From NCBI GenBank assembly GCA_027262695.1, contig GCA_027262695.1_4722.1: a stretch of 64,000 nucleotides of DNA, one strand, 5' to 3'. Source of the stretch: a phage. The notes under the pieces are model-generated. The model was not told where the DNA came from. It searched no databases and saw only the letters and a list, made by a program, of their open reading frames with translations. Below, in pieces: positions 4,540-62,546 of this stretch. Numbering within the stretch: position 1 is the stretch's first letter; every line of letters starts with the position of its first letter. The translations under genes were made by a program, and so were the position numbers.

Positions 4540-5628
4540 ATGAGCGACCTGGCAACAGACAATCGCACAAAAGGGAGTCAGCTAGCTCCAGACAACAACG
4601 TAAGCGTTTTCCGTATCTATGCCTTGGGTACTGTTGCTGCCGACTTTTCCAATAAAAGTCTGGAGGAAGATCCTAACCAAACGCTGGAGGTCTTTCTTGA
4701 TGAGATGATGTCAGGCGCTGATGGGAAAGTTGAAGCGGCGGGAAGCGTTAAAGAAGTCAGTGCAACAGACGCTCAAGGGAACAGTTATACGGCGAAAGCG
4801 GCAACAACAACCAGCGTACAGTGTTACTGGTTACCTTTCGGTAGTAACCGGATGACAGCACCTAACTTGAGGAAAGGTCAGCGTGTGGTGGTCTGGCGTA
4901 CTGCTGATGAAGAACAACTCTATTGGCAGCCCAAAGGAGGGGATAGTGAGCTGATGACCATGGAATCGGTTATCCTCACCGTCAGCGCACGTCCTAGCGC
5001 TAAGAAGGACCGTAAATCGATTTCAACGGAAGACTGCTATTACCTAATGGTTGATACCTTTCTTAAGAAAGCGGTTATCGGTACAAGCGCACAGCTTGGT
5101 GAAGTTACCCAAGTCTACATGGAACTTAATCTGGACGAGGGTTACCTACAGGTTGCGGACAGCGTCCATCAAAATCTGCTGTTACTCCATTTCGTTGAAC
5201 ATATGCTGCGTTATCAAAACCAGGACGACAGCATCATCGACGTGACAAAAAAGAACATCACATTCCAGTGCGAGGATACGCTCAAAGCCATCGCTAAGAA
5301 CGATATCCGAATGAAAGCAAAAAACATTTATACCGAATGTGAGAACTTCGAGCGTACCAGCAAAACAGAAAGCGTTACGAGTCAGAATGTTTCTTTGAAG
5401 TGTGACCGCTACACCGCGCAAGTATCAGGACAAACCACGTTCAAATGTCCTAATACGGTATTCACCGGAGCTGTAAGCTTCACAGGTGAGGACGGAAACA
5501 CGATGACGTTGAATGGGAACTTCGTACATGTTGCGGGCTCTTGGCGTTCACCAACCGGAACAAACGTATACACCCACGATCATGGTGGTGTAGATCGTGG
5601 TAGCGGTCGTACAGACCCGTTCCAATAA
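4540..5628 (+). CDS. hypothetical protein, possible virion protein
   Basis: 362 aa ORF with GGAG-type RBS (gtaGGAGattacagcATG), divergent from SbcC-like gene. Confidence 0.55.
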   Translation: MSDLATDNRTKGSQLAPDNNVSVFRIYALGTVAADFSNKSLEEDPNQTLEVFLDEMMSGADGKVEAAGSVKEVSATDAQGNSYTAKAATTTSVQCYWLPFGSNRMTAPNLRKGQRVVVWRTADEEQLYWQPKGGDSELMTMESVILTVSARPSAKKDRKSISTEDCYYLMVDTFLKKAVIGTSAQLGEVTQVYMELNLDEGYLQVADSVHQNLLLLHFVEHMLRYQNQDDSIIDVTKKNITFQCEDTLKAIAKNDIRMKAKNIYTECENFERTSKTESVTSQNVSLKCDRYTAQVSGQTTFKCPNTVFTGAVSFTGEDGNTMTLNGNFVHVAGSWRSPTGTNVYTHDHGGVDRGSGRTDPFQ

Positions 5629-5650: not shown

Positions 5651-5684
5651 CCTCCTTCCCCGGCCTGATGGCTAGGGAAGGAGG
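5651..5684. terminator. GC-rich hairpin, CCTCCTTCCC / GGGAAGGAGG stem, at convergent gene ends
   Basis: 10-bp inverted repeat read directly; member of recurrent hairpin family. Confidence 0.5.
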
Positions 5685-5699: not shown

Positions 5700-6089
5700 T
5701 TAACGGATTGCGTTTTGGATGATTTCTTTTCCGATCGTAATCAAAGCAGGTATCTGTACTGCGGTTGCGCCTTGATGACGAAACGCGGTCGTTAATGCGG
5801 TATCGATGCTCACAGCACGTCCGTGAAGACGATCGAAATAGACTTGAGTGATAGCAGCGGCATACTCTTTTCGCTGTTTCTTGGTTTGGTTTACCATCGT
5901 CGCACTACTACCGACGATGAAATAAGCGATTAAGAAGAATGCGGCTGACCGTGAGCCGGGTAGAAAGCCTTGGCGTTTAGGAAGCATTTCACAATCACGA
6001 ACAGTAATACTGTTCGTGAGCTTTTCCATGTCGACATGGCATAATTTTGCATAGGTGTGAAGATGATGGGTAAAAGTTGAATTTAACAT
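5700..6089 (-). CDS. hypothetical small protein with one hydrophobic segment
   Basis: 129 aa ORF; AAFFLIAYFIVGSSATMV looks like a transmembrane helix. Confidence 0.4.
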   Translation of the reverse strand: MLNSTFTHHLHTYAKLCHVDMEKLTNSITVRDCEMLPKRQGFLPGSRSAAFFLIAYFIVGSSATMVNQTKKQRKEYAAAITQVYFDRLHGRAVSIDTALTTAFRHQGATAVQIPALITIGKEIIQNAIR

Positions 6090-8425: not shown

Positions 8426-8450
8426 AGGAAGGGAAACATATTCCCTTCCT
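8426..8450. terminator. hairpin AGGAAGGGAA-acata-TTCCCTTCCT
   Basis: 10-bp perfect inverted repeat between same-strand genes. Confidence 0.45.
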
Positions 8451-10854: not shown

Positions 10855-11627
10855 GCGAACGTTTCTCCTGTAACGTGTTGCGGATAGCGTAGCATGGTAA
10901 CATCCCATTGTACGAATCCCTGCTGTTGGAGTTGTTGCATAACCGCTTCAACGTCTTGTCCTGGATGCGCAACCGGCAACCAACGTGTATCCAGCACCTT
11001 CGCTTCAAGGCGGGCTTTGCGCTTGTTCCAACGTACCTCGCTGATCCATGCGAAGCCAAGCGGATGCACCACCTGCGGGTAATGCACGCGCAGCAGGTTC
11101 TTCATCCGGCGAAGGATTGCAAGCCTGGCGTCAAGCGCGTATGGTTTCACCTGGTTAAGCTTGCGGGTGTAATACGTTCCCACGGTTTGGTTCGCCCAAC
11201 CAGGAAGCGCATGATGGGACCCAGCCTGCAATGTATTGTCCCCGTTCGTCTTCAACCAACCGTATTGCCCTGCCGCACGTCCTTTCTCATGTTCAACTTG
11301 TACCAGCTGATCGATGAACGAAGCATCAACGATACCGTGATCCACCTCATCCAACGCATAGCGCACCACCAACCCGCTCGCGCTCATCCGTGCGGGATGC
11401 TGGCTCCGATGCGCGTACCAAACCCTATTAACATGCAGCCGAGAAGGATACGTGTGTGCGCCACGCCAAAACACTTTTCCGAGAACACGTTCTCCACAGT
11501 ACACCATCACCCCTTTGTGATCGATTAGGTAATCCAACACCTTCATGCATTCCGCTTTGATGCTATCCGGTAATGCTAAGTATTCCTCTTCGGTGAACAC
11601 GGTATCAAAAATGATTTCATCGCTCAT
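10851..11627 (-). CDS. hypothetical protein, tandem paralog C (more divergent)
   Basis: 258 aa; HPLGFAWISEVRWN and GFVQWDVTML correspond to motifs in A and B. Confidence 0.55.
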   Translation of the reverse strand: MSDEIIFDTVFTEEEYLALPDSIKAECMKVLDYLIDHKGVMVYCGERVLGKVFWRGAHTYPSRLHVNRVWYAHRSQHPARMSASGLVVRYALDEVDHGIVDASFIDQLVQVEHEKGRAAGQYGWLKTNGDNTLQAGSHHALPGWANQTVGTYYTRKLNQVKPYALDARLAILRRMKNLLRVHYPQVVHPLGFAWISEVRWNKRKARLEAKVLDTRWLPVAHPGQDVEAVMQQLQQQGFVQWDVTMLRYPQHVTGETFA

Positions 11628-11677
11628 GGATAAAGTTCCTTGTTTTCACGTTGTTTGATTAACGTATTGATTTCTGA

Positions 11678-12070: not shown

Positions 12071-12073
12071 AAA

Positions 12074-12130
12074 CAATGGATAACATGTGTTTACTACGCT
12101 CGTTGAGTTATAACTCAACGGTAACACATG
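12074..12130. repeat. nested palindrome ACATGTGTT...CGTTGAGTTATAACTCAACG...AACACATGT
   Basis: Perfect 20-bp palindrome CGTTGAGTTA/TAACTCAACG flanked by 9-bp outer inverted repeat. Confidence 0.5.
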
Positions 12131-12536
12131 TCATCTGTGCATTACACTACGTTACATGCTTATCAACGTTTTGTGAAGACAAAACGTTCAACTCTAAAAA
12201 ACCATTTGTGATACTCTTCTTCACGTTGTTCATCAGAGTATCTCGTCTATCCTCACTGCGTTCGCATACGACATCACCGTTATACGCTAACGCTACGCTT
12301 ATAGCTTATAACTCTAAGGATAAAAACATAAACTCGCTTCGCTCGTTTAGTTTTTCTTTTTCTTAGAGTTATCATGTTGCTCGTCTCTAAAGGACTTCGC
12401 TCCTCCCCCGTCCCCCGAAGGGGCCGAGGTCGTGGAAATTTTACTTTCCAAATACATTTACAACGTCTGTAAACTTTTACCGACACATACCTAATCTTAT
12501 ATTTAAAATTAGAAAAAGAGAAAATACGAACATAAC

Positions 12537-12566
12537 CCTCCTCCAACCCGGAAGGGAAGGAGGAGG
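12537..12566. terminator. hairpin CCTCCTCC-AA-CCC-GGAA-GGG-AA-GGAGGAGG (canonical family member)
   Basis: Read directly; immediately downstream of stop of 12585-13478. Confidence 0.55.
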
Positions 12567-12584: not shown

Positions 12585-13478
12585 TTAATCGGAAGTGTTA
12601 TAACCGAATACTGCTTTACCGTAGGTGTGAGTACCATCACTGAGTGACAATACTAATACGTGGTTATACGCATCGTTAACACCCTTGTCGGTAGAATCGG
12701 TGGTAACACCGTTGTAGACAAAGGTAGCTGATTGCAGATTGGTTTTCAGTTCATTGATGATATCATCACTTACACCAGTCTGCTCTTTAATCAGAGTAGT
12801 CAGGTTACCTGCTAAGCTTGCGTCGAGATTTACTTCGTTGCCAGTAATAGCTTGTAAACCTGAAGCGTAAGTACTGAAGTCTAACGGATAGGTTAACAGA
12901 CGTGCTGACGTTTTGGTACCATTGCCTTCATCAACGTAGGTTAAGTTACCCAGGTTGGTAACCTTGATAATGTTAGACAGATCCAGCGTTGTGTTATAAA
13001 CTTTAACTTGAACAGAACCATACCAAGCCAACGAATCTTCTTTGGCTTCCAGGGTAACGGTTTGGATACCTGACTGATCAAAGGTAACGGGATTAGATAA
13101 CGTTTCAGCTTTGATGTCTTTTGTTTTATCCAGGAACTTCTCGCCGGAAGGCGTAACCATACCGTAGCGTTGAGCTACGAGGTCGACCACGTCACCGATG
13201 GTGGTGTTTGCTTCAACACTAACGCGCACCGCGATCTTCTGGAACCATTTAGCCAGATCCAGACGATGATAGGTGACATCGCGGGTATTGAAGTACGGTG
13301 TACCATCACCCGGACTGAGTGTTAATGTTGCTGCACTATCAGAATCGCTTTTGGATTTAAGAACGTATTTGAGATCAGTGTATTTGAAACTGGCTCCCGT
13401 ATCGGCGTTAAGCTGGTTGATCTCATCAACGATAAGTTGCCACGGTGTTTTCAAAGTAAGTGATACTCGACTTGACAT
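12585..13478 (-). CDS. putative tail/baseplate-associated structural protein, member of 4-copy paralog family
   Basis: 297 aa; shares Y-x-R-[IL]-D-L and LAW-[YT]-GSV motifs with 24541-25446, 26363-27214, 27225-28160. Confidence 0.55.
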   Translation of the reverse strand: MSSRVSLTLKTPWQLIVDEINQLNADTGASFKYTDLKYVLKSKSDSDSAATLTLSPGDGTPYFNTRDVTYHRLDLAKWFQKIAVRVSVEANTTIGDVVDLVAQRYGMVTPSGEKFLDKTKDIKAETLSNPVTFDQSGIQTVTLEAKEDSLAWYGSVQVKVYNTTLDLSNIIKVTNLGNLTYVDEGNGTKTSARLLTYPLDFSTYASGLQAITGNEVNLDASLAGNLTTLIKEQTGVSDDIINELKTNLQSATFVYNGVTTDSTDKGVNDAYNHVLVLSLSDGTHTYGKAVFGYNTSD

Positions 13479-14362: not shown

Positions 14363-14394
14363 CCCCTCCTCATCCGTTATTGGGTGGGGAGGGG
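14363..14394. terminator. hairpin CCCCTCCTCATCC / GGGTGGGGAGGGG
   Basis: 13-bp stem with two G-U pairs at convergent ends of 13621-14163 and 14458-15093. Confidence 0.45.
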
Positions 14395-17281: not shown

Positions 17282-19879
17282 TTATAACGTGACTGTACCT
17301 AATTTGGTTGTCTTATTGAGATTAATGACAGAGATCTGGGTATCGCTGGTCGTAATCGTTCCGATATTAACGCGCTGTCCTTTATCATCTTCTTGCTTGT
17401 AGATGGTTAACTCCAGTTCTAACTGGTCGCCATTAGGAACAACGGAAACGTACCATGTTTTATTACCTGGTGAACTATTATAGTCTTTTAGGTTATAATG
17501 GCCTTTAGGTAAGGTCATGGCCTTACCGGCAAACAAACATGAAATGTCCTCGTTGATATAAACGTCGAAACCGGAAGAAGCGATGACTGTTGAGGCCATT
17601 ATTCGAGACGCGACGATACCACGATTATAGTCGTCGATTGTGGTACCTATGACATTGAATACTTGCCCCCCGTTACCCATAATGGTCGATTCGCTAGTGT
17701 TTACGTAGCCGATACCCCAAGTCGGATGAATGTTCCAGCGGTACCCACTGTTTTGTAAATATGTATACATGTCCTCATAGGCCGCATTCACCCAACTACC
17801 ATCACTTTTTCGTCCAGCCCTAAATTGGAATGTGTTGCTATTTCCAGATGTCCCTCGGCCAAGCGGGACATGTCCCGCTACTAACCAACCATCCGTACTT
17901 TGCATATATGCGAACGAACCGTACGCTCTGTTATCAGCCCAAATATTCACGGTATCAACACGCTCAACGTAGGCGATTACCTTTTGTACGCCAGTTATAG
18001 CGATTGAACCCTTGCGTGCCGACAAATTAACTTCTGCGATTACAACACCCATTTTACGCTGGCTGCCACTAAACCCCAATACAACCATTAAACACGGTGC
18101 GTTTGTTGCTTCAGGAGGGATTGTTATCGATTGTTTCCAGTCGGTGATTCCGTTGAGTTTTGTTCCAGTGTATGCGTTCCAGACGGTTTGTCCAGCCGAT
18201 TTCAGATTCTGTTCAGAAATAGAAATGCTATCGCCCTCAGGGATTAACGTGTCGTAATTAAGACCGATGTTACTGGATAGACGATTGTCATTTAAGTAAG
18301 ATCCACTGAGTGTGACGTTATTGTTACGATATATTGTCAAGAATGGCGCAGCCAGAGCGTCTAATACCGTAAAGTTACTTGATGGCATGAAACCATAGAC
18401 ATCGATACCATTACCGTGGTAATGGTAGTTTGTCCAACTACCTTGATAACTTACGGTACGCCCATCGTAGTGACCTTGTTCACCGCCACTGCTAGACAAC
18501 GTGTATATCTTGGTTGCTGATAGAAATGCGAGATACCCATGAGCCGCCAAAGCTCCAACAACCCTGTCTTTTATCTTTAACCAATCTGAAGTATATAACG
18601 TACTGTCGGGATTCATTTTGGCTATTTCATCGTAAGCTGTGCCTGCGAAGTTTCCGATAGTGTACGTACGTATATCCGGCTGTCCGTTATTGTCGTTCTG
18701 TACAGCAATTACTTGCCCAGAATCATTGATATCGATATTACCGATACAGTTGTGAGGCCCCCACACCCAATATCCATCTTTATAATTGGATTCTCCTTGT
18801 GTGAATGTTGATGGTCCTCGCCACGCGATGCCGTTCGATTCGGCGTAGTAGGTCGCTTGCCCCGATCCGGGATTCATGGCGTATTTGTTATTGGTTGGGT
18901 CAAAATCGATGTAAAAATGATGCATTCCTTGACGTTGATGATTGTTCTGATCATTTGTCCACCACGATGAACCGACCAGAATTCGCGCTTTACCATTTTT
19001 TACAGTGGACCATAAACGTATTGCAGCGCGCCAGATGATTTGACCGATCCCGTTAGACGGGAAACTATTCGCACTTATACGGTTACAGACTATGAGTTCG
19101 CTGCTATTGTTTACTTGAGTCCCTTCAATTGTGACACCGTTTATGTTAGTGATCAGTGTTGCCGATACACTACCCCCTGTAGGGGCGATAGAGGAACGTT
19201 GAACGGTGTAAATTTTTAGTGATAATTTATAGCCGTCCCTAACAGCAATCCCAATGTAAATAGTCCCGTTAATTTCCCAACAACAAACATCGGGCATCGT
19301 TTCTTTGAAATCGGATAAAGCACCATCGATATACATTGCAACGTGTTTACTGGCATCGAATGTACCATCCGTTAACGCGATGAACATTTTGGCGTTATTA
19401 CCGTTGATATCAGCCGCTAATCCGAGTAGTATGTTGTTCTGATGACAGTAGATGGCTTTAGGTGCTAGATCCAACATAGCCGGTTGGTACTGTCGGCTTG
19501 TCGGTATTACGCTAGTAACTGCACCATTTTGATCCGTTTTACAAATAACGTAATATACGCCATGTATGATGCTGTTTGTCGCCGACCTTAGTAGGACAAT
19601 CGTCCCGTCAGATTCACGACATATACCGTAATGACGATAGTCGGTGATTAAGCCGATAGCACCATCAGCAGAGCCTTCAATTGCCAGAGGAAAATAACTT
19701 TGGTCCCCAACCTGTTCGATATCGGTTGCGCCAATATCGATGTATTTTTCCATCTCAGTGTTGAACTCAGCGGTACTGTAGGCACCGAGATCGCTCGCCT
19801 TTAGTCCCGTTGGGTTGTCGCGACTGGCGATACGCGTAGTAACGCTACTCACCAGTTCGCTGAACTTTTTCATTGCCAT
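17282..19879 (-). CDS. putative tail fibre / tailspike protein
   Basis: 865 aa, Gly/Ser/Thr/Asn-rich; N-terminus RDNPTGLKASDLG resembles the fibre repeat; in tail-fibre operon. Confidence 0.5.
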   Translation of the reverse strand: MAMKKFSELVSSVTTRIASRDNPTGLKASDLGAYSTAEFNTEMEKYIDIGATDIEQVGDQSYFPLAIEGSADGAIGLITDYRHYGICRESDGTIVLLRSATNSIIHGVYYVICKTDQNGAVTSVIPTSRQYQPAMLDLAPKAIYCHQNNILLGLAADINGNNAKMFIALTDGTFDASKHVAMYIDGALSDFKETMPDVCCWEINGTIYIGIAVRDGYKLSLKIYTVQRSSIAPTGGSVSATLITNINGVTIEGTQVNNSSELIVCNRISANSFPSNGIGQIIWRAAIRLWSTVKNGKARILVGSSWWTNDQNNHQRQGMHHFYIDFDPTNNKYAMNPGSGQATYYAESNGIAWRGPSTFTQGESNYKDGYWVWGPHNCIGNIDINDSGQVIAVQNDNNGQPDIRTYTIGNFAGTAYDEIAKMNPDSTLYTSDWLKIKDRVVGALAAHGYLAFLSATKIYTLSSSGGEQGHYDGRTVSYQGSWTNYHYHGNGIDVYGFMPSSNFTVLDALAAPFLTIYRNNNVTLSGSYLNDNRLSSNIGLNYDTLIPEGDSISISEQNLKSAGQTVWNAYTGTKLNGITDWKQSITIPPEATNAPCLMVVLGFSGSQRKMGVVIAEVNLSARKGSIAITGVQKVIAYVERVDTVNIWADNRAYGSFAYMQSTDGWLVAGHVPLGRGTSGNSNTFQFRAGRKSDGSWVNAAYEDMYTYLQNSGYRWNIHPTWGIGYVNTSESTIMGNGGQVFNVIGTTIDDYNRGIVASRIMASTVIASSGFDVYINEDISCLFAGKAMTLPKGHYNLKDYNSSPGNKTWYVSVVPNGDQLELELTIYKQEDDKGQRVNIGTITTSDTQISVINLNKTTKLGTVTL

Positions 19880-23206: not shown

Positions 23207-24484
23207 ATGTATACATTGGTAAAAACTTACGGATTACCCGTAGGTTCCGGCACGGCCTGGACAGCACTTGAAGCGGGTGAAAGCGTCCTGAGCACGTTGT
23301 TCGCAACGTATCAAAAACTCAATATCCAGGTCCATGAAAGTTATACTGACCAGCAGCAGGTTATCGATCTTTATACGTTTCAATCCGAGCTTCAAAACAG
23401 CAGCGATACGCTTAATGCTTGGCTGAAGGCGAAGTCGGATGCCCACACCAACCTTCGTGGTCAACCGGGTGAACTCTCGATTAAAGCCCACAAGCTCTAT
23501 TGTCACGACGTTATCACGGTAGGCTTTCTTCCTAAAGTCGGTAATAGTGGATATCATCCAAGCAACGCGATTCCTGAATCGGAACGTACCGATATTCTCC
23601 TAACAAAAGCGAACACGAATTACGAGAACATCGGCAAGCACTGCTTGTTCACGGTAGGGGGTTACGTACACCCTCACGTTTACGGTAAGGATGTTGGTGT
23701 TTATATCCAGGGTGGATTCAAGACAGCCCAACGCAGCCAGGAAAACGATATCGGGATGATCGATTTCAGCTGTATCGGAAGTTTGGAGATTCATGCGATC
23801 ACAGAAGACATGATTGCGGATTCCACGAAGCTTTTACCGTACAAAGATGAGATGTATCTGCGCTTACCCCGTAAAGTCGCGGAAGATGAAACGGTCGCAT
23901 TAGTGTTCGGAGGTTACTTACATCTCCTCGATGACTGTTACACGATCGTTAGTGATACGACAGCAAAAATAAACTGCATTAACATGTTCTTGTACGAAAG
24001 GTATTTTCGTTCTCGTGAATATCTTGACTTAACCTCCCTCGGTATTCTCTTGGACGAAGAAAACCCACAATCGGATATTGTTGCGAACCGTTTGCTGTCC
24101 GATAAAGCCTTGAAAGCTTGGGTGACCCATCCATGCAGCTTTTGGGTTTATATCAAAGCAACCTCGATTCAAGTTACGCAAGAACCGCTACCGCGCAGTG
24201 GTGTGCCAGGACAGTATTTCTTAGGCAAGAAACCGGAAGGATTAATTCGCGCGGATCTTGGAGAACTACCTGCGTACGTACAGACTTACGAGAAACCACT
24301 GTGGGTACTTCATTCACGATGGGGACTTCGTAAGAACATGCTGTTTGAAAACACGTTATACAAACACACACGTGTTAAACGCCTCAATGATACACCGTAT
24401 CTCCATCAGGTATGGTTGGAAACGCATGCGACGTTACAAACCGTACACAAGCTGGAACTGATCGATTCCAGTCAGAAAAAATAA
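23207..24484 (+). CDS. hypothetical protein
   Basis: 425 aa ORF, divergent from tail-fibre operon. Confidence 0.55.
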   Translation: MYTLVKTYGLPVGSGTAWTALEAGESVLSTLFATYQKLNIQVHESYTDQQQVIDLYTFQSELQNSSDTLNAWLKAKSDAHTNLRGQPGELSIKAHKLYCHDVITVGFLPKVGNSGYHPSNAIPESERTDILLTKANTNYENIGKHCLFTVGGYVHPHVYGKDVGVYIQGGFKTAQRSQENDIGMIDFSCIGSLEIHAITEDMIADSTKLLPYKDEMYLRLPRKVAEDETVALVFGGYLHLLDDCYTIVSDTTAKINCINMFLYERYFRSREYLDLTSLGILLDEENPQSDIVANRLLSDKALKAWVTHPCSFWVYIKATSIQVTQEPLPRSGVPGQYFLGKKPEGLIRADLGELPAYVQTYEKPLWVLHSRWGLRKNMLFENTLYKHTRVKRLNDTPYLHQVWLETHATLQTVHKLELIDSSQKK

Positions 24485-24499: not shown

Positions 24500-24531
24500 C
24501 CCTCCTCCAACCCATCAGGGAAGGAGGAGGG
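24500..24531. terminator. hairpin CCCTCCTCC-AA-CCC-ATCA-GGG-AA-GGAGGAGGG
   Basis: Family member at convergent gene ends. Confidence 0.55.
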
Positions 24532-24540
24532 CATATGCCG

Positions 24541-25446
24541 TCAGGCTACGTATAACGTTAGATAACCTTCAATGAGGGTGTTCATTACACTGAGTTGGAG
24601 AACGACAGCTTTACTAACATCCGTACGCACCCCGAACGGTAGCGTTTTGAAGTGCTCTGGATCCGTAATAACTTTCGCGTTTTGTAGGTTAAGCGATCCT
24701 GGTATCGCTGACAATACCCAACGATCGTTAACCGTCAGACCAACGATCTCTTCAGAAAGTCCTAACTTCAGAGTGTTCATTTCTGCAATCAGGGCTTCTG
24801 AATGCGCATCGCCCGATGTTAACGTGTAACCATCGGTTAACGCCGTCAACACCGCATCCGATACGAACCAGTTGTACGATACGATCGCACCTGGTAGCTT
24901 ATCGCTATCCCGATCGATGATGTAGTTAAGACCAGCTAACATGTTGTTACGGATGAGGTTGTTCAGGTCGTTATGACCTGATGTCAACTCAACAAGCAGT
25001 TGACCGACCCAGACTTGGTTACCGGGTTTCGGTGTTATTACAACCTGTATCGGCTGTCGGGATTTGTCCAGATCAGCATCAACGATTTCGGTTTTATTCA
25101 GCAGGATACCGTACGTTGAGGCTAAGACAGGCAATACCTCAGAAACCTTGGTCAGTGTATCTAAGGTTTCGATTTCTATCGGCCAACGATGTTGCCCACC
25201 AGACCAAATACCGAGTTTGCTAAGATCGATACGGTTGTAATAGATGTCGACGGAGTTCACGAGCCCGGAACCCGGTTGTGGGTGCACGGTCAACATACTG
25301 TTGCGTTTGTATCCCGTGCTTTCAGAAGCCTCACCGATAACCAGCTTATCCAGCGTCACACCCCGAGCATCGAAATCGCTATGTTTTCGAATCAGTCGGA
25401 AGAGAATTTCCTTTGATTCTAGCCCCAGGATTTCACTGTACTCCAT
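24541..25446 (-). CDS. structural paralog family member
   Basis: 301 aa; YYNRIDLSKL and QVWVGQL motifs shared with 12585, 26363, 27225 genes. Confidence 0.55.
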   Translation of the reverse strand: MEYSEILGLESKEILFRLIRKHSDFDARGVTLDKLVIGEASESTGYKRNSMLTVHPQPGSGLVNSVDIYYNRIDLSKLGIWSGGQHRWPIEIETLDTLTKVSEVLPVLASTYGILLNKTEIVDADLDKSRQPIQVVITPKPGNQVWVGQLLVELTSGHNDLNNLIRNNMLAGLNYIIDRDSDKLPGAIVSYNWFVSDAVLTALTDGYTLTSGDAHSEALIAEMNTLKLGLSEEIVGLTVNDRWVLSAIPGSLNLQNAKVITDPEHFKTLPFGVRTDVSKAVVLQLSVMNTLIEGYLTLYVA

Positions 25447-27224: not shown

Positions 27225-28160
27225 TTAGCCTTGTTCTTTCGGGGAACGGCCCTGAAGGCTTGCGGTATGCCCGTCGACATTATAATAGAAAATCAACGGA
27301 CCGCCAACAGCAGTACAGTAGTTTTCATCCAGACTGATTTCGATGCCGTATTGGTAACCTGCGCGAGCCGGGATACGTTCGCCTAACTCACCGTTGAAAT
27401 CCACCTTCGCGTTATACAGGTTGTATGGCGCTGTGTTATCGGTTAATACCCAACGATCGGTGGTCATTTCAGCCAGAAGGTCAGCAACCATCACATCGCT
27501 AACAACGGTACCTGTTACCAGCGAAGCCAAAAGCTCACCGTACTCAGACGTATCGCGACTGTAACTGTAGATTTCACCGCTTGCACGTACACCCTGTCCA
27601 AAGAACTTAAGACCGTCCAGCTCTTTGATCGCGATGATATCATCAAGATTCGGTACACGCGATTTCATCAGGATACGAACGCTCCCCGTCCAAGCCAGGC
27701 AACTAGATACGACGCGAAGCAACTGTCCGTTAACGGTATCCCAGTTAAGTTCATCGTTGACGATTTCTTCAGCTGTAAGGCCAAGACCGAAACGTTCCTT
27801 GATGATAGGCCAGATATCACGCATCTTGGTGGCGTCTGGCGCATCAATAAGAATAGGCGCTACGTTACGCAGATACGCGCCGATATTAATACGATCGTAA
27901 TACAGCGTCGTCGAACCTTCATAATCGTCTAACTCAGTAAGCTTAGCGGTTGCCGTTGCCGTAATCTGGGTGTCGCGCTCGTAGGCGCTTTGGTTAGTGG
28001 TTGGTGTTCCTAAAACCAATAATTCAGGTGTCAGGACGTGTTCTCCGTTCTGAGGTGGGTTATCGTGGTTGATAAGACCGTACACGAGATCGGATGAAGG
28101 TAAAGAGACGTCAACCGGGTAAAGTTCGGTGCCGTCAGTAGTTGTTACCGTATCACTCAC
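27225..28160 (-). CDS. structural paralog family member
   Basis: 311 aa; LYYDRINIGAYL and CLAWTGSVRILM. Confidence 0.55.
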   Translation of the reverse strand: MSDTVTTTDGTELYPVDVSLPSSDLVYGLINHDNPPQNGEHVLTPELLVLGTPTTNQSAYERDTQITATATAKLTELDDYEGSTTLYYDRINIGAYLRNVAPILIDAPDATKMRDIWPIIKERFGLGLTAEEIVNDELNWDTVNGQLLRVVSSCLAWTGSVRILMKSRVPNLDDIIAIKELDGLKFFGQGVRASGEIYSYSRDTSEYGELLASLVTGTVVSDVMVADLLAEMTTDRWVLTDNTAPYNLYNAKVDFNGELGERIPARAGYQYGIEISLDENYCTAVGGPLIFYYNVDGHTASLQGRSPKEQG

Positions 28161-30658: not shown

Positions 30659-33577
30659 ATGAACGATATAAATAAAGGGCGCGTCGCCCTCGAACGTCAA
30701 ATGAGCAATAATGACGTTGCGAAGGCACTCATGAACAAATTTGTCGCTCCTGCTCCGCAGTCACGTCTTTATAACACACGTGAAGCGGAAGGAGCGAGCG
30801 GTCGTTTCGGGTTAGTTGTTCCCGACCAGATGACGATGAACACGGTGACGCGTGCGACCGCAACAAACGTCGAGGATAATAAAAACATCCTCGAGTTGTT
30901 CCCTGAACTTAAACGCGTGATGCAGATCTATGTTGCCGCGTTGACGAACCCTAACGATCTTAAGACGGTCGAGATGTTCATCGACAGCGAAGATTTCCCC
31001 GGCAGAGTCGCAGAAATCGTTCAGCCGATGATCGATACCATCGACACGCATTTTAAGAATATCTATAAAATAAAGACGCTTATCCCTCGTATCATCGAAG
31101 ATGTCTTCTTTATCAAGGGCAGCTATAACTTCGTTGTTCTGCCTGAAAGCACGCTCGATCGTGCTATTAACGGCAACGGCCAACTGAAACTCGAAGAATA
31201 CGGATTTAAAAACAATCATTTCGCCAGCTGGGGGCTGCTGGGGAATGACAGCCGTATACGCAGTCAACATCAGTTACCGACAACGGTTTCGATGGAAGAT
31301 TATTTTTCAGGCGTTAACGAAACCATCCCGTACGATCCGGTTGTCCGTATCGATAGCATCAAGTTTACCAACACGATGCTCCGTGATAAAGACGGTAAAT
31401 TCATTGAAGCGAAGGTCGATATTCCGGATATGGTTACGGTTGTTGATAACCCAGACATCCTTCGCATGCCGATTTTACACCAACGTCGTGCGTCAACAGC
31501 CGTGCAACGTGCATTACGTGCAAACACCTTAGGCGGTAACGGCCTGGTGACGTTATCAGGCGATCCGACGCAAACCGCGAATCGACGTGAGCTGACACAA
31601 GAGCAAGTTAATGAGATCTGGAATAAACTAAACATCCAACGTCATACCAAGGTATCGCCTGTGTACGCACTAGCAACCCCGGATACCCTTGACCGTCAAA
31701 GTGTCGGTCATCCTGGTGTGATGCACGTACCACCTGAGTCATTAGAACCGGTTCATGCGCCTGGCGATCCAGAGAACCATATCGGTTATCTCGTCCAGCT
31801 GGATGAATTCGGTTACCCAGTACGTTTGGTTGAAGATGCTGCGTATTACAAACAGCTGGAAGGTCGACTGTCGAAGATCACGGCGGATATTGCCGGTACA
31901 TCAAGCAACGGAATGGCGAGTGAGATGATCGGGGCAGCGAAGAACATGGTTCAAGGTACGTCGTGTAACCAAGTCGATATGTCAGCGTTTGTCTCGTCGT
32001 ACGAATCACTGATGCAACGTTATATCGTTGAACGTATCGTTAACGGTTACCTCGGCAGTGCGGTAGAAATCGGTGCAACGTCGTCGTTCTATCTGTCGAT
32101 GCTTGCCCGCAGTCTTGCTCACAAGCAAACCCGTGTTTTGTTTATTCCTCGTGAGATGGTGACATACATCGCCTACGAATACAACAAATACGGGATTGGA
32201 CGTTCCTTGCTTGAAAGTACGAAGATGATCTCTTCGCAACGCGCGATGCTCATGGTTCAGGAACTGATGGCGAAAATCAAAAGTTCGTTGAACTATACGA
32301 CGCTGAGCGTGATGCTCGAAGACACCGATAGAAACCCGGTTGATACCGTTGAGCAGGCATTGCACAGTTTTGCTCGTGTTTATCAATCTGGTTTCCCGTT
32401 GGGTGAAACCAACCCAATGGATATCATCAATGCATACGAACGAAGCTCGATTCGATTGAAGGTTGAAGGGAACAACCCACGCTTCCCGAAACTGAACACC
32501 GACGTTAGCGTTGAACAACGTAACTACCAATCCCCGGATGATGAGCTGATGGATCGTTACCGTCGTGATCATTTCATGGGTCTGGGTGTTTCTCCAGAGA
32601 TCGTTGATACGTCCTATCAATCTGAATTCGCGGCGTCGGTGATTACGGCTAACGCGATGCAAGAGAAACAGTTCACGGTTTGTCGTGAGGTCGTCACGAA
32701 TGGCTTAACTGATCACATCAAGAAGTATACGGCTTACAGTCCTGTGCTTCTGACGTCGTTACGCAATACCGTTCGCGCGAATATGTCAAAGCTCTCTCAA
32801 GCGCAGCTGCAACAGCTCTTTGGTAGCGACTTCGAAAACGGTGTTATTCGTAACGTGAACGCGTATCAGGAGATTGATGATCGATCGGTGACAATGGATC
32901 TGGATTACACCAAACCGGAAGTCCAGGAAGTGATTGCCGACGCTTATGTCTCCATGTTCTTAAACAGCTTGCAGGTACGTTTACCGGATAGCAACGCGCG
33001 TCGCCTTGAAGATCAGGTACGTGAATATAATCAGTACAAGGAAGCGATTACAGCACAACTTGATGATTATTTAACACCGGATTATGTCATGGGTCTGGGT
33101 GGGGTCGATGAAACAACCCTGCAGATGATTCGAGCGTGCATCATTGGTACGGCGATGAGGACATGGGCGAAAGAAAACAACTTCAATCAGGAGCTGGCTG
33201 ATCTCTTTAGTCTCGACGATAAGAAGAATGCCGTCCAGGATTGGAAACGTGCATCCATGGAGCATATTGAAATCATGGGTAAATGCATGGGTGATTTCGC
33301 ACTCTATATCCAAAACCTGACGAAGCAAATCGAAGAGAAGATGGGCGACCAAGCACAAGACGGTAGCGTTTCATCTGACGGCTCATGGTCATCGGATTCC
33401 GGTTCGGATAGCGGTTCTTCCGATGATTTCGGTGGTGGTGATGACTTTGGTGGCGACGACGATTTCGGAATGGAAGAAACCGAAGAATCCACCGAGGAAA
33501 CCACTACGGAAGAAACAACCGATGAAACTGGTGATAATGCCGCATCAGAAGACGATACCGCAGGTGATATTGTCTAA
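30659..33577 (+). CDS. portal-like protein with acidic low-complexity C-terminal tail (call from size and context only)
   Basis: 972 aa; AGGAG RBS 9 nt upstream; C-terminal DDFGGGDDFGGDDDFGMEETEESTEE. Confidence 0.35.
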   Translation: MNDINKGRVALERQMSNNDVAKALMNKFVAPAPQSRLYNTREAEGASGRFGLVVPDQMTMNTVTRATATNVEDNKNILELFPELKRVMQIYVAALTNPNDLKTVEMFIDSEDFPGRVAEIVQPMIDTIDTHFKNIYKIKTLIPRIIEDVFFIKGSYNFVVLPESTLDRAINGNGQLKLEEYGFKNNHFASWGLLGNDSRIRSQHQLPTTVSMEDYFSGVNETIPYDPVVRIDSIKFTNTMLRDKDGKFIEAKVDIPDMVTVVDNPDILRMPILHQRRASTAVQRALRANTLGGNGLVTLSGDPTQTANRRELTQEQVNEIWNKLNIQRHTKVSPVYALATPDTLDRQSVGHPGVMHVPPESLEPVHAPGDPENHIGYLVQLDEFGYPVRLVEDAAYYKQLEGRLSKITADIAGTSSNGMASEMIGAAKNMVQGTSCNQVDMSAFVSSYESLMQRYIVERIVNGYLGSAVEIGATSSFYLSMLARSLAHKQTRVLFIPREMVTYIAYEYNKYGIGRSLLESTKMISSQRAMLMVQELMAKIKSSLNYTTLSVMLEDTDRNPVDTVEQALHSFARVYQSGFPLGETNPMDIINAYERSSIRLKVEGNNPRFPKLNTDVSVEQRNYQSPDDELMDRYRRDHFMGLGVSPEIVDTSYQSEFAASVITANAMQEKQFTVCREVVTNGLTDHIKKYTAYSPVLLTSLRNTVRANMSKLSQAQLQQLFGSDFENGVIRNVNAYQEIDDRSVTMDLDYTKPEVQEVIADAYVSMFLNSLQVRLPDSNARRLEDQVREYNQYKEAITAQLDDYLTPDYVMGLGGVDETTLQMIRACIIGTAMRTWAKENNFNQELADLFSLDDKKNAVQDWKRASMEHIEIMGKCMGDFALYIQNLTKQIEEKMGDQAQDGSVSSDGSWSSDSGSDSGSSDDFGGGDDFGGDDDFGMEETEESTEETTTEETTDETGDNAASEDDTAGDIV

Positions 33578-33611: not shown

Positions 33612-33645
33612 CCTTCTCCCCAACCCGGAAGGGAAGGGGAGAAGG
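33612..33645. terminator. hairpin CCTTCTCCCC-AA-CCC-GGAA-GGG-AA-GGGGAGAAGG, preceded by A11 run
   Basis: Same core as canonical copy with compensatory stem changes; A-run at 33586-33596. Confidence 0.55.
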
Positions 33646-33662: not shown

Positions 33663-33938
33663 TTATCTCGAGTTTAACCACGATTCAATTGTGGTGAGGT
33701 TGCTTCGCAATACGCGCCAACTAGGGTGTGGTGGGATCACAGCACCTTTGTCGATTACGGTTAGCTGAGCCTGGTACTTCTGTTTCATACGGGCTACCGT
33801 AGCGCTTACCGAAAGGAAAAGCTGGTAACGTTCGTACACCGTCAGTTCATCTTCCCGTCGAACTGCTCCTGTTGCTAACGTAATTTCGCGTAAGTCCTTT
33901 GCGTCCATCGGGACAGTAATGAGTTTATAATGACTCAT
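33663..33938 (-). CDS. hypothetical small protein
   Basis: 91 aa ORF. Confidence 0.4.
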   Translation of the reverse strand: MSHYKLITVPMDAKDLREITLATGAVRREDELTVYERYQLFLSVSATVARMKQKYQAQLTVIDKGAVIPPHPSWRVLRSNLTTIESWLNSR

Positions 33939-40045: not shown

Positions 40046-40074
40046 CCTCCCTCAGCCCGTAAGGACCGAGGGAG
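40046..40074. terminator. hairpin CCTCCCTC...GAGGGAGG downstream of putative capsid gene
   Basis: 8-bp outer stem with inner CCGTAAGG. Confidence 0.45.
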
Positions 40075-40174
40075 GTTGACTTATGTATCACGGTGCCGGA
40101 TGAATGTCCGGTGTAATGAAACCATCCGCAACGTTGTTTTCAAGAACTTCATCCAACGAAGCAGCTCCGGTATT

Positions 40175-42397
40175 TCAGTTAGTCTGAACCGGCAGCTTGA
40201 TGTTTTCAGTGTAGACCTTACGCAGGTTCACAACGTTGATCAGACCCAGCAGCGGGCAGTTGTTCACGAAACGGCAGCGCGGCTGAACCATGGTTTCTTT
40301 AGAAACCTGACCGTTACGAGTAACCTGAGCAACGGATACCAGTTCCGGTACGTACAGGAACATACCGAAGGTCAGCGGATCCGGAGAACCCTGGATACCA
40401 CGAGACAGGGTCACGAAGATCTTGTCGCGCAACATGACGTTCGGGTTGTCTACAACCACGAAGTTGAAGCTTACACCCACGGTGCGGAAGTCACCGTCGG
40501 TCTGCAGGAACTGCGGGATGTAGTTGTCGGTTGCTACTACGCAACGCGGTTTCTCATCAGCGTTGGAAGACAGCAGCTGCAGAGCTGGCTGATAACCAGA
40601 CTCGGAGTACATGCGGTACGCCATTTCACGAATCACGTTCATGATCGCAGCGGATACTTCAGCACGACGTTCTGCAGTGGTGGTACCCTGAACGGATTTC
40701 TCCAGGTCCAGATCGATTTCTTCGAACCACGGACGAATCAGGTAACGACCGAAACCTTCGATCTGAATGTCACCGAACTGACGGAAGCGAGAAGTTGCAA
40801 CCGCTTTCAGGGCGTCTTTGTAGCTGAACAGTTTCTCAACCATCAGGTTGTCGAAACGTGCGTTAGCTGCTTGGATCAGAACATCCAGGTCAGCAGCGTT
40901 TTCTTCCCAATCCAGCGGACGAGGAATGGAGAACGGAGCCAGCAGGCCGATTGCGTAACGTTCTTGCTTCATGTTGAAGTCAAGATGTTTACCGCGTTCA
41001 CGACGGTTGCTGTTGTTACGACGGATACGCAGTTCGTAACCCACCAGTTTGAAGCTCAGGTCTTCAGCCAGATCTTTGAATTCCTGGCTCTTACGCGGTT
41101 GTTCGATGTTGTCCTGGTCAACCAGACGATACAGTTCAGCGGTAGCGCCATTAACACGCAGACCCGCTTTCTCTACGTTGGAAGAACCGTAAACTTCGAT
41201 CGCCAGCTGAGCAGCAGATTTCGCATCGATGATGTCCTGCAGCGCTTCAGCTTTCGCACCTTTAACGTCAACGGTGTTCTCATCAACGAAGATGGAGTGG
41301 GTGTCGAACGCCAGGGTCATTTTGCGGAAGTCGCCTTCCAGGGATTTCTGGAAACCGTTGGTGATCAGACCGGATACGTCGAACGGAACGTAAGAGGTTT
41401 TGCTGTGCTTGGTGGATTTAATTTCCACCAGGATTTTGGTCAGCGTGATCTGAGCATCCAGCGCGTCAGTGTTGTCGCTGTAACCGTTAGCCAGAATGCT
41501 ATCGTCTTCAGCGATACCGATCATGTCGATCAGTTTATCAACCGCCAGGTAAGACGTTTTGTAAGTAACGCCTTTGATTTCGATGTCGCGCGGAGCAACG
41601 ATGGTTTTATCAACGAAGTACTGCGCGTTAGCATCGTCAGCACGGTAGATCGGATGCAGATCGGTCACGTCGTTGGACAGAACGTCGTTGTACATGAACG
41701 CATCCAGCAGCGGACGACGTACCCAATCAGCCGGAGTACCATCACCGTTACGACGCAGGTGGTTGAACACCAGCGGACGACGGAAGGAAACGTCATAACC
41801 GATCTGGTTCGGAGCCAGAACGATGGTGTTGTACAGTTCGTTACCCATGCGGCTCAGACGAGACGCCTTCACGTTGAACACAACGGAGTACGGCATCATG
41901 TCACGCAGTTCTTTCTGGTCGTAGGACAGCTGAACCAGTTCTTCAGATTCACAACCGCAGGAATCCGCAGCCATCATGACGAAGTTAGCGCTGTCAACAT
42001 CACGGCCGGACGGCGAGGTGCTGATGTTCATGGAACGTGCTTGTTTAGCATATTCCACCGGGTTGCCATGTGCCAGCATGATCAGCGCTGCAGCGCGAGC
42101 CTGCTGTGCGTTCATGGTGAACAGCTGTTCTTCAATACGTTGCTTCTCTTCCGGAGTTGTGGTTTCGAAGCCCAGCATGGACAGAACCGGTTCTTCAGCT
42201 TTACGGATGTCGCTGCTGAAGCTCTTAACATCCATTTCGTTAACCAGTTTGTCCATGGATTTGAAATCAACCTTAGAAGCAGATTCCATAGACAGGAAGG
42301 TGTTTTCCAGACCTTTGTCTGCTGGTTTGCTACCATTAGCGGTCAGGAACTGGCGAGTGGCCGCGACCTGTTGGCTAAGAAGGGTTTTATCATTCAT
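40175..42397 (-). CDS. putative major capsid protein (large HK97-fold type, by size and codon usage)
   Basis: 740 aa; strongest host-optimal codon bias in window, producing a 774-codon stop-free antisense ORF; AAGGA RBS. Confidence 0.45.
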   Translation of the reverse strand: MNDKTLLSQQVAATRQFLTANGSKPADKGLENTFLSMESASKVDFKSMDKLVNEMDVKSFSSDIRKAEEPVLSMLGFETTTPEEKQRIEEQLFTMNAQQARAAALIMLAHGNPVEYAKQARSMNISTSPSGRDVDSANFVMMAADSCGCESEELVQLSYDQKELRDMMPYSVVFNVKASRLSRMGNELYNTIVLAPNQIGYDVSFRRPLVFNHLRRNGDGTPADWVRRPLLDAFMYNDVLSNDVTDLHPIYRADDANAQYFVDKTIVAPRDIEIKGVTYKTSYLAVDKLIDMIGIAEDDSILANGYSDNTDALDAQITLTKILVEIKSTKHSKTSYVPFDVSGLITNGFQKSLEGDFRKMTLAFDTHSIFVDENTVDVKGAKAEALQDIIDAKSAAQLAIEVYGSSNVEKAGLRVNGATAELYRLVDQDNIEQPRKSQEFKDLAEDLSFKLVGYELRIRRNNSNRRERGKHLDFNMKQERYAIGLLAPFSIPRPLDWEENAADLDVLIQAANARFDNLMVEKLFSYKDALKAVATSRFRQFGDIQIEGFGRYLIRPWFEEIDLDLEKSVQGTTTAERRAEVSAAIMNVIREMAYRMYSESGYQPALQLLSSNADEKPRCVVATDNYIPQFLQTDGDFRTVGVSFNFVVVDNPNVMLRDKIFVTLSRGIQGSPDPLTFGMFLYVPELVSVAQVTRNGQVSKETMVQPRCRFVNNCPLLGLINVVNLRKVYTENIKLPVQTN

Positions 42398-42546: not shown

Positions 42547-43167
42547 TCACAAACGACGCAGGCGATAATGGATGGAACGATTGGTGCAATATGAACGGAA
42601 CAGCGGTAATTGCGCAACTTCCGCAAGACTCATATTAATTCGCAGATGTTCGATAACCGCGCTGTAGTTATCGGCGATACGATCGCTCAGTAACTCTTCT
42701 GCCAATAAAGGAAGACAATCGACAACGATGGCGATCACATCCTCATTAACATAACGCACCCGAACATTGAGTGGACGTTTGTCTGGGCCGTAAGTTGGAT
42801 CCGCCAAACGACGTTCAATATCGCGTGGATAGCTCGTCAGTAAATGGTAATAACCATTGTCATAACGATTGATGTACTCACACAGCACATCAACATTCTT
42901 CTCTGGCGGCAAACCTGTTTCGTCATAGTGATACGCAAACATACCACCAAGCAGGTTGTTAAGATGAACAGCCGCATTCGTTTGTTCGTGTTCTTTCGTA
43001 ATGAAGAAAGGCACGTTCTGAGCTGCGAAATAAAAACCTACATCATTGGGCGATAGTATGCCGAAAAGACTTTTAGGATCCAACAGCACCTGTAAGTCAT
43101 CACGCGCATTTCGCATAATCGCGTGTTCTACCCAATTCGGAACGACGAGATATCGGAGTTCCTTCAT
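42547..43167 (-). CDS. hypothetical protein
   Basis: 206 aa ORF divergent from 43207 gene. Confidence 0.5.
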   Translation of the reverse strand: MKELRYLVVPNWVEHAIMRNARDDLQVLLDPKSLFGILSPNDVGFYFAAQNVPFFITKEHEQTNAAVHLNNLLGGMFAYHYDETGLPPEKNVDVLCEYINRYDNGYYHLLTSYPRDIERRLADPTYGPDKRPLNVRVRYVNEDVIAIVVDCLPLLAEELLSDRIADNYSAVIEHLRINMSLAEVAQLPLFRSYCTNRSIHYRLRRL

Positions 43168-43206
43168 TATGATTACCTCTTTGTAAGTATCGAAAGGATT
43201 GAGTCG

Positions 43207-44843: not shown

Positions 44844-44874
44844 CCCTCCTCCAACCCGGAAGGGAAGGAGGAGG
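44844..44874. terminator. hairpin CCCTCCTCC-AA-CCC-GGAA-GGG-AA-GGAGGAGGG, preceded by A11 run
   Basis: Canonical copy; A-run 44823-44833 gives a U-run after the hairpin for minus-strand transcripts. Confidence 0.6.
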
Positions 44875-44892
44875 GTTATGACCGTTATGGTG

Positions 44893-45219
44893 TTAACTTA
44901 TCGTCATGAATTCCGTAGGTGAGAATTTCCAACCGTTTTCATTGAGAAGCGTGTTAAGTTTCGCTGCAACGATAAGCCATGCGTGCATGGCTGTCACATC
45001 GTATTGGCGATTAACACGGCGTTGGTTTTCGATATCGATTTGCTCCCGTTCGGTGATGTTTGGGTAGAGCGCGACGGCGCTGGGCTTCCCTAACGCATCA
45101 CTCATTACCGCCTGACATTCACTGATGATGTTATTGAGATGATAATTGTAAACCGTTCCACGCATAACACGATGACGGCATTCAATAATAGCGTCGTAAA
45201 TAATTTCTCTTGTTGTCAT
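44893..45219 (-). CDS. hypothetical protein
   Basis: 108 aa ORF. Confidence 0.45.
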   Translation of the reverse strand: MTTREIIYDAIIECRHRVMRGTVYNYHLNNIISECQAVMSDALGKPSAVALYPNITEREQIDIENQRRVNRQYDVTAMHAWLIVAAKLNTLLNENGWKFSPTEFMTIS

Positions 45220-48544: not shown

Positions 48545-48575
48545 CCCTCTCCCAACCCGTAAGGGAAGGGAGAGG
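48545..48575. terminator. hairpin CCCTCTCCC-AA-CCC-GTAA-GGG-AA-GGGAGAGG
   Basis: Family member with GTAA tetraloop and compensatory stem variant. Confidence 0.55.
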
Positions 48576-53797: not shown

Positions 53798-53885
53798 CGC
53801 AGATTCCTGTTTGAAAGATAAGATATCACATGATGGTCGACAGCATAAAGCCCACCCCGAAGGGCGGGCTGTTTATGCGTACGGA

Positions 53886-59667: not shown

Positions 59668-59782
59668 TTAGGACTCCTACGTAGGAAAGATCATGGTGGG
59701 TGATCATGTCCACCATTGTGCGTGGTATGAAGCGTGGCTTCATACCCAAGTCAAAAGATAACCGGTCATCAACACCATAAAA

Positions 59783-59814
59783 CCCTCCTCCAACCCATTA
59801 GGGAAGGAGGAGGG
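59783..59814. terminator. hairpin CCCTCCTCC-AA-CCC-ATTA-GGG-AA-GGAGGAGGG
   Basis: Family member between same-strand genes. Confidence 0.55.
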
Positions 59815-59822
59815 TGCTTATC

Positions 59823-62492: not shown

Positions 62493-62523
62493 CCCTCTCC
62501 CTTCCCTGACGGGTTGGGAGAGG
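62493..62523. terminator. hairpin family member in inverted orientation (CCCTCTCCC-TT-CCC-TGAC-GGG-TTG-GGAGAGGG)
   Basis: Reverse complement gives the AA-CCC-loop-GGG-AA core. Confidence 0.5.
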
Positions 62524-62546
62524 GAATATGTCAGTTTGCTAACTGA

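Follow-up and report, generated by a model that had tools for sequence, protein, structure and literature searches.

The 64,000-nucleotide (nt) stretch of phage DNA analysed here in full (NCBI GenBank assembly GCA_027262695.1, contig GCA_027262695.1_4722.1; hereafter the window) carries at its gene ends a family of GC-rich hairpins, among them the flagged site at 12537..12566, and these are likely to be factor-independent terminators, or 3'-end-forming signals, of the type known from phage phiKZ, serving a phage related to Escherichia phage vB_EcoM_Goslar. The signal would consist of two parts. First, an RNA hairpin whose 5' arm holds only pyrimidines (CCYCC...) and whose 3' arm holds only purines (...GGRGG); second, a TATG box of consensus (T)TATG-YY-GT, placed 2-6 nt past the stem and replacing the U-tract. 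By analogy with phiKZ, the transcript would end at the G of TATG or 1-2 nt beyond it, about 5-11 nt past the stem, and the hairpin remaining at its 3' end would probably also shield the mRNA from 3' exonucleases. A two-tier form built from Watson-Crick pairs only, with TATG on both sides, would represent the bidirectional version, used mainly at convergent genes; one-directional sites would more often employ shorter or G·U-containing hairpins that fold well in the sense transcript only. The class to which we assign these elements was defined in phiKZ, where ONT-cappable-seq mapped 61 terminators with the consensus BCCYCCCCHWWDGGGRRGGBYTTATKYYGT (Putzeys et al. 2024, PMC10914365).

E. coli is the host of Goslar (Goslarvirus), a nucleus-forming jumbo phage with a genome of 237 kb, and several beta and beta' subunits of phiKZ-like RNA polymerases are annotated in its record. 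The window is syntenic with it at 79-95% identity; most of the window lies at 85-95%, identity falls to 79% across 60494-64000, and for the segments 8760-10530 and 46320-48480, which hold extra or replaced genes, Goslar offers no match at the nucleotide level. No polymerase gene lies within the window, so that phiKZ-like multisubunit RNA polymerases, virion and non-virion, are assigned by proxy through this synteny; judged by its sequence, the window phage is a Goslar-like member of the Chimalliviridae that would transcribe with its own multisubunit RNA polymerases. A pattern scan of IMG/VR yielded two further Goslar-like genomes, and, as the window is at most 96% identical to Goslar or to either of these, it was counted as a fourth genome. 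Goslar has 15-16 canonical two-tier hairpins plus about 15 weaker GC hairpins and the IMG/VR genomes 13-15 canonical copies each, with the sites at the same intergenic positions in all four wherever orthologous regions were compared. The Goslar record marks two of the 15 canonical copies and three long variants as 'putative transcriptional terminator', these being ARNold predictions, and the counterparts of 5651, 14363 and 24500 are among the terminators so annotated.

Hairpins and TATG boxes at gene ends

The hairpins of the window and their boxes are as follows; a strand is given where one was assigned, and bit scores are those of a covariance model built from the family (R1).

12537..12566, minus strand: canonical hairpin and flagged site, CCTCCTCC-AA-CCC-GGAA-GGG-AA-GGAGGAGG, 45.4 bits; 18 nt past the stop of the minus-strand gene 12585..13478
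12531..12534, minus strand: TATG box of the 12537 hairpin, beginning at +3 after it and reading GTTATGTTCGT
24500..24531: canonical hairpin between convergent genes 23207..24484 (plus) and 24541..25446 (minus), 56.1 bits
24534-24537 (plus) and 24495-24498 (minus): TATG boxes on both sides of 24500
33612..33645: canonical hairpin, stem CCTTCTCCCC/GGGGAGAAGG, where genes 30659..33577 (plus) and 33663..33938 (minus) converge, 47.7 bits
33648-33651 (plus) and 33603-33606 (minus): TATG boxes on both sides of 33612
44844..44875: canonical hairpin between convergent genes 43123..44817 (plus) and 44893..45219 (minus), 56.3 bits
44877-44880, plus strand: TATG box of 44844
48546..48575, minus strand: canonical hairpin 5 nt past the stop of 48581..49948 (minus), 47.1 bits
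48538-48541, minus strand: TATG box of 48546, TCTTATGCCGT, one mismatch to the phiKZ consensus
59782..59815, minus strand: canonical hairpin 7 nt past the stop of 59823..61115 (minus), 54.3 bits
59776-59779, minus strand: TATG box of 59782
62493..62524, minus strand: canonical hairpin with inverted core, 22 nt past the stop of 62547..63878 (minus), 56.4 bits on the minus strand
62486-62489 (minus) and 62527-62530 (plus): TATG boxes of 62493
5651..5684: divergent member, stem CCTCCTTCCC and inner tier GCC/GGC, where genes 4540..5628 (plus) and 5700..6089 (minus) converge, 18.3 bits, -27 kcal/mol
5687-5690, plus strand: TATG box of 5651
40046..40075, minus strand: divergent member 100 nt past the stop of the major capsid gene 40175..42397 (minus)
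40038-40041, minus strand: TATG box of 40046, TTATTATGCTGTTA
14363..14394, plus strand: divergent member, CCCCTCCTCA.../...TGGGGAGGGG, 13.3 bits, with TTATA at +3
53849..53870, minus strand: putative single-tier terminator, absent from the earlier note, AGCCCGCCC-UUCG-GGGUGGGCU as minus-strand RNA, then TTATGCTGT
53844-53847 (minus, one mismatch to the phiKZ consensus) and 53874-53877 (plus): TATG boxes of 53849
8426..8450: non-member hairpin from the earlier note's list, AGGAAGGG...CCCTTCCT

The canonical design comprises an outer stem of 8-10 base pairs (bp) with a pyrimidine 5' arm, AA, CCC, a 4-nt loop, GGG, AA and a purine arm. An earlier note on this DNA, made from the letters alone, had proposed that at least 11 sites share this architecture. 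GC-rich hairpins are indeed present at all 11 coordinates, but the exact two-tier design is found at only seven of them (12537, 24500, 33612, 44844, 48546, 59782 and, with its core inverted, 62493), whereas three are divergent relatives without the AA/CCC core (5651, 40046 and 14363, at 18, 15.5 and 13 bits, respectively) and 8426..8450 was excluded from the family on account of its opposite arm polarity (purine-rich 5' arm), the lack of a TATG box and the lack of a model match. The identical core at three sites, and the variants of loop and stem, are all as the earlier note had stated. The seven canonical sites score 45-56 bits (E values of 1e-10 to 1e-13), and beyond them and the three divergent sites R1 detected nothing else above noise in the whole window. 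A pyrimidine CCYCC-type 5' arm and a purine GGRGG-type 3' arm are shared by all seven canonical and three divergent window sites, and the same polarity is seen in 51 copies across the four genomes. The hairpins at the 11 coordinates are, moreover, the most stable local folds of the window, with -15 to -27 kcal/mol where 34-nt background windows give -4.6 +/- 2.8 kcal/mol. A scan of the whole window with Rfam returned no family at gathering score.

As had been noted before, the family resides at gene ends: all ten sites fall into the roughly 7% of the window that is non-coding, and not a single model match of at least 13 bits occurs inside genes, although about 93% of the window is coding. The distance past the stop codon is 5-22 nt for the seven canonical sites and 5651, reaching 63 nt at 14363 and the listed 100 nt at 40046. 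Five window sites lie at convergent gene pairs, as do 10 of the 15 canonical copies of Goslar at convergent junctions, and length is associated with placement as well, hairpins of at least 29 nt being divided into 16 convergent versus 11 tandem, and shorter ones into none versus 14 (p=1.4e-4). At the capsid site, a plus-strand open reading frame (ORF) of 774 codons (40076-42400) spans the major capsid gene in full on the opposite strand, almost certainly as a shadow ORF, and is misleading for naive longest-ORF gene calling.

A feature that the earlier note did not contain is the TATG that starts 2-6 nt downstream of the stem, which gives symmetric sites the overall layout CATA-(1-4 nt)-hairpin-(1-4 nt)-TATG. 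Of the Goslar directions into which a gene is transcribed, 22 of 25 have TATG, versus one of five of the others (Fisher p=0.006; chance expectation 1.9%), and the window gives nine of ten versus one of four. The box extends to (T)TATG-YY-GT, often TTATGCTGTTA, and the published 3' half-consensus of phiKZ matches six window hairpin sites with 1-3 mismatches. TATG also follows plain single-tier hairpins, namely 53849 in the window and 3508, 55080, 132985 and 180588 in Goslar. At symmetric sites the flanking CATA and TATG can add four A-U/G-C pairs; that they merely extend the stem was rejected, because the box persists at one-sided sites and follows the direction of transcription. There is no sign that TATG is avoided inside genes, given 156 in-gene occurrences on the minus strand, the sense strand of most genes, versus 87 on the plus strand. 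A U-tract of about 7-9 nt next to the stem is absent; the downstream sequence reads GTTATGTTCG, CATATGCCGT, AATATGTCAG and similar, and A or T runs, where present, are displaced 10-15 nt from the stem.

The flagged site illustrates the directionality. Its minus side carries the box at 12531..12534, which is the predicted 3' end position of the minus-strand transcript, and its plus side (TGATAACAG) has no TATG and no plus-strand gene end within 120 nt upstream, the nearest plus-strand ORF upstream being the unannotated 12076..12366, which ends 170 nt away. The 24500 hairpin, with boxes on both sides, would be a bidirectional terminator, and its Goslar orthologue (27746..27777) is one of those annotated 'putative transcriptional terminator'; annotated as terminators are also the orthologues of 5651 (11186..11220), 14363 (17603..17637) and 53849 (55080..55101). 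The Goslar orthologue of 33612 has a 5-nt loop. On the minus side of 44844, where TATG is missing, a T11 run is found 12 nt downstream.

The presence of a purine arm and an ATG in close succession calls for consideration of a role in translation. The earlier note had remarked that the 3' arm reads as a strong GGAGG ribosome-binding-like sequence, and the arm could then act as a ribosome-binding site that the hairpin hides or exposes, serving either a downstream ORF or re-initiation. GGAGGAGG does stand 3-8 nt ahead of an ATG at most sites, and Goslar gene 00047 is annotated from such an ATG. However, the ATGs in the window open ORFs of only 3-39 codons, convergent sites have such an ATG on either strand, the arm is locked in stems of -21 to -27 kcal/mol, and genuine genes have GAGGA-type sites of their own directly before their starts; we thus find a translational role barely credible and do not retain the ribosome-binding interpretation of the arm. 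Goslar_00047 (62 amino acids, Goslar 49584..49772) starts at the ATG of a terminator TATG box, and as its window counterpart (ATG at 48540) opens an ORF of only 27 codons, this gene call may be spurious. Binding of the RNA-binding protein ChmC was also considered and dismissed, as the paper that applied crosslinking and immunoprecipitation (eCLIP) reports binding near start codons and no motif.

Covariation, core inversion and strand asymmetry

Among the 51 canonical copies of the four genomes there are 24 distinct sequences and six types of outer stem, and every copy is perfectly complementary. The compensatory stem changes described previously were upheld: the 22 distinct sequences whose loop has 4 nt show pairing in 100% of cells and changes on both sides in seven of 14 pairs, although the copies are linked by descent and possibly by gene conversion, such that these counts are not independent. 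None of 500 shuffles matched the observed pairing, and slid registers likewise fell far below it. Among the core matches the outer stem is either at least 8 bp long or absent; there are no half-broken copies, and the covariation is therefore not an artefact of copy selection. Between orthologues, compensatory C-G to T-A swaps distinguish 12537 from Goslar 15778 and 59782 from Goslar 61009. The same stem types recur at several loci, and gene conversion between copies could yield part of the covariation pattern.

A second kind of change affects the core. At 62493 and 5651 (window versus Goslar) and at 44844 (window versus IMG/VR 3300045988_173921), orthologues carry its central 14 nt, made up of the internal loop, the inner stem and the loop, in exactly opposite orientations, with the outer stem unmoved. 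This is a small hairpin-mediated inversion, akin to the 'flip-flops' of loops in chloroplast DNA. The proposal of a conserved GNRA-type core had to be abandoned, since its orientation flips between orthologues and only some of the loops conform (GGAA, GTAA and GTGA, but not GTCA, ATCA, ATTA, AACA or AGCA). The fit exists, furthermore, on one strand only, and the mRNA usually corresponds to the other; most one-directional sites have the complement UU...UUAC...UU in their mRNA and not AA...GTAA...AA. What is constant on the AA strand of all copies is an A at loop position 4 and a purine at position 1.

Whether the structure acts as RNA can be judged from its strand asymmetry. At the 25 one-directional hairpins of Goslar the sense RNA is the more stable at 17 and the antisense RNA at four (Wilcoxon p=0.0014), and G·U pairs are distributed alike, 17 on the sense versus four on the antisense strand. 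This preference of G·U pairs for the transcribed strand argues for selection on RNA, and the idea of a selected RNA structure at gene ends is thereby strengthened. The same asymmetry can be seen at individual window sites: the 40046 hairpin pairs fully only as minus-strand RNA, by means of G·U pairs (-25.5 kcal/mol on the minus, or sense, strand versus -17.9 on the plus strand, with the Goslar orthologue equally asymmetric), 14363 folds at -26.4 kcal/mol on the plus versus -17.7 on the minus strand, and 53849 has a G·U pair on its sense strand. The canonical two-tier copies have no G·U pairs at all and fold equally on both strands (at 12537, -20.9 kcal/mol on the plus and -21.9 on the minus strand), which suits bidirectional use.

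The above asymmetry bears directly on the view that the element works at the level of DNA, be it as a palindrome bound by a dimeric protein, as a cruciform or recombination site, or as a mobile repeat of the repetitive extragenic palindromic (REP) or miniature inverted-repeat transposable element (MITE) type. Such a view could draw on the near-perfect palindrome, the CATA...TATG flanks included, on the flip of the core between sister genomes, which is a DNA-level event, and on stem types common to several loci, which suggest gene conversion. Nevertheless, the asymmetry between G·U and C·A follows the transcribed strand and would be invisible in duplex DNA, TATG depends on the direction of incoming transcription, and the orthologous positions in four genomes indicate that the element is not mobile. 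We therefore regard a DNA-level function as highly improbable.

Termination, processing and the TATG box

The earlier note had left undecided between a terminator, an RNA-processing and an mRNA-stability element, and the match of both hairpin and 3' flank to a phiKZ motif derived from mapped 3' ends favours the terminator. To relate motif and ends, the coordinates of Table S4 of bioRxiv 10.1101/2023.10.13.562163 were applied to 100 kb of phiKZ sequence, and 13 of the 46 mapped 3' ends therein proved to belong to hairpins with a TATG box. Without exception, these 13 ends fall within -1 to +2 nt of the G of the box, 4-8 nt beyond the hairpin stem. Because the window motif is homologous to these mapped terminators, transcripts of the window phage are predicted to end at the TATG boxes listed above.

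The same ends can perceivably be explained without termination. If the polymerase read through and host 3' exonucleases or an endonuclease trimmed the transcript back to the hairpin, the element would serve processing or stability only, setting mRNA half-life. PNPase and RNase II typically stall 4-8 nt past stems, which is where the phiKZ ends are found; the hairpins have no U-tract, and stems of -21 to -27 kcal/mol make good exonuclease blocks. Trimming, however, leaves a conserved and directional TATG-YY-GT box at a fixed distance unexplained, and it does not account for the fact that the phiKZ ends, spread over 4-8 nt when measured from the stem, keep to -1 to +2 nt when measured from the G. 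In addition, eight mapped terminators of phage 201phi2-1, chosen across its motif classes, were active in a terminator-trap reporter (PMC11512511). Taking both sides into account, we consider that processing or stability alone is an unlikely explanation.

Several points do weigh against termination at these sites. The function assigned to the elements of the window phage and of Goslar rests on motif homology to phiKZ, and even there the 3' ends obtained by ONT-cappable-seq cannot separate termination from exonuclease trimming to the hairpin. With no U-tract adjacent to the stem, the elements would be weak terminators by the rules of cellular polymerases. Three directions with an incoming gene carry no TATG in Goslar (48107 minus, 174267 plus and 174267 minus), and the window orthologue of the first of these, 44844 minus, lacks it too. 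The gene model of the window is heuristic, combining greedy ORF choice with the Goslar annotation, and the shared descent of the copies reduces the weight of the covariation.

If the hairpins are nonetheless terminators, what does the TATG contribute? In phiKZ, TATG is the core of late promoters, which start transcription on its G (Yakunina et al. 2015, PMC4666361), and gp123, the beta-like subunit, binds the non-template TATG at positions -3 to +1 (PMC12809450). Promoter and terminator thus use the same four bases, the G being the first base transcribed in the former and the last one lying at or next to it in the latter; the G of a phiKZ terminator TATG is the same base as +1 in TATG late promoters. 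One could imagine, then, a composite of terminator and promoter, in which TATG is the late-promoter core at which the non-virion polymerase restarts for the next gene. This would agree with the requirement of phiKZ late promoters for TATG and their start at G (PMC4666361), with the next gene being 20-200 nt further at tandem sites, and with the frequent placement of phiKZ promoters close behind terminators. Yet convergent junctions have TATG on either side of the hairpin with no co-directional gene behind it, the phiKZ start sites tabulated from 19.9 to 118 kb never hit the TATG of a terminator, the promoters being located 5-50 nt downstream, and the model late promoter of phiKZ, P119L, has no upstream hairpin. 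The composite is accordingly very unlikely in our estimation.

As a more tentative addition to the terminator model, the TATG box may be more than a weak RNA-DNA hybrid and be read by the phage polymerase through the late-promoter TATG pocket of its beta-like subunit; we put this forward as a possibility only, by analogy with the promoter. An elongating polymerase reaching the G of TATG would pause in a promoter-like register, and the hairpin formed 5-9 nt behind it would then release the transcript, so that the same four bases would mark late starts and stops and substitute for the U-tract. Compatible with such recognition are the fixed spacing, the phiKZ ends at -1 to +2 nt from the G together with the gp123 contacts at -3 to +1, and the fact that a relative, SPN3US, has U-tract terminators and no TATG.

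Two further features of the window lie outside the family. Between divergent genes, 11628-12075 is a 448-nt non-coding stretch with more than ten GTTATC/TTATCT-type repeats and four TATG on the plus strand; its Goslar counterpart up to the hairpin (14972-15777) has no annotated gene, and a role as a cluster of promoters, as an origin or as an array of protein-binding sites is conceivable. Two GGATACC-N(2-4)-GGTATCC palindromes occur at 7463-7478 and 23135-23152. The latter, conserved at Goslar 26383-26400, is situated in a promoter region between divergent genes and hence is no terminator; a DNA-binding protein may use it as an operator.

Comparison with phiKZ and other systems

With bacterial intrinsic terminators the window hairpins share a GC-rich hairpin right after the gene, symmetric versions for convergent genes and, as proposed here, a 3' end a few nt past the stem. 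They differ in having a TATG box in the place of the 7-9 nt U-tract. The inner tier of the hairpin is also encountered elsewhere: dozens of unrelated AT-rich viral contigs of IMG/VR carry a CCCCCC-AA-CCC-(A/G)AAA-GGG-AA-GGGGGG hairpin (e.g. L006:3610, L017:8551 and L042:10644), flanked by A runs that are T runs on the other strand, which looks like a canonical bidirectional intrinsic terminator. Comparison of nine such contigs with Goslar revealed no shared proteins. The two-tier core was for this reason discarded as a marker of Goslar relatives, and the AA-CCC-loop-GGG-AA inner tier is a convergent or generally favoured design.

Among chimalliviruses the picture is mixed. SPN3US, a related phage, has plain hairpin plus T-tract terminators, with TATG on none of 30 hairpin sides; the grammar of hairpin and TATG is hence not universal in this group. 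The same scan of perfect-stem hairpins, which is blind to two-tier stems and informative only for phiKZ and SPN3US, found TATG on 24 of 56 sides in phiKZ against 3.3% expected. R1 detected no two-tier copy in 50 kb of SPN3US, and none in 100 kb of phiKZ, where only partial matches of 13-20 bits were obtained. For 201phi2-1, terminator motifs A-E have been described, of which motif A resembles the phiKZ motif and A combined with B forms an elongated stem-loop; 15 terminators were assigned as bidirectional, and the authors suggest that long stems resist antitermination (PMC11512511). The likeness of these motifs to the window hairpins is one of published description, not of sequence.

The closest correspondence is with phiKZ itself, whose copies read ...CATAagc-CCTCCC-loop-GGGAGGG-cTTATGCTGTTA, with a flank identical to the cTTATGCTGTTA of Goslar. 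The phiKZ motif and the window hairpins have in common the CCYCC/GGRGG arms, the TTATG-YY-GT box 2-4 nt past the stem, the intergenic position just past stop codons, the occurrence of CATA...TATG on both sides at convergent genes and a phage polymerase of the same multisubunit type, assigned to the window by proxy. What sets them apart is the stem, a single one of 6-8 bp with a 4-6 nt loop and about -15 to -18 kcal/mol in phiKZ, but two tiers of 11-13 bp in total, separated by a 2x2 AA/AA loop and reaching -21 to -27 kcal/mol, in the canonical window form, which thereby departs from the short single stem of the phiKZ consensus. Plain single-tier copies coexist with two-tier ones (53849 in the window, 140971 in Goslar).

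Taken together, we argue that the canonical elements belong to the known phiKZ-type terminator class, of which they are a variant with a longer, bidirectional stem. Hairpin+TATG sites would offer a ready map of transcription-unit ends for Goslar-type phages, a main E. coli model for phage-nucleus biology, and the two forms suggest a design rule by which a Watson-Crick two-tier hairpin with two TATG boxes serves convergent genes and shorter or G·U-containing hairpins serve one direction; the former are also candidate strong insulators for the engineering of jumbo phages. The coincidence of TATG in terminators and late promoters provides a testable idea of how a sigma-less phage polymerase might recognize its stop signals. 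Not used by SPN3US, the 'hairpin + TTATG' grammar of phiKZ appears to be common to chimalliviruses of Pseudomonas and E. coli despite their differing GC content.

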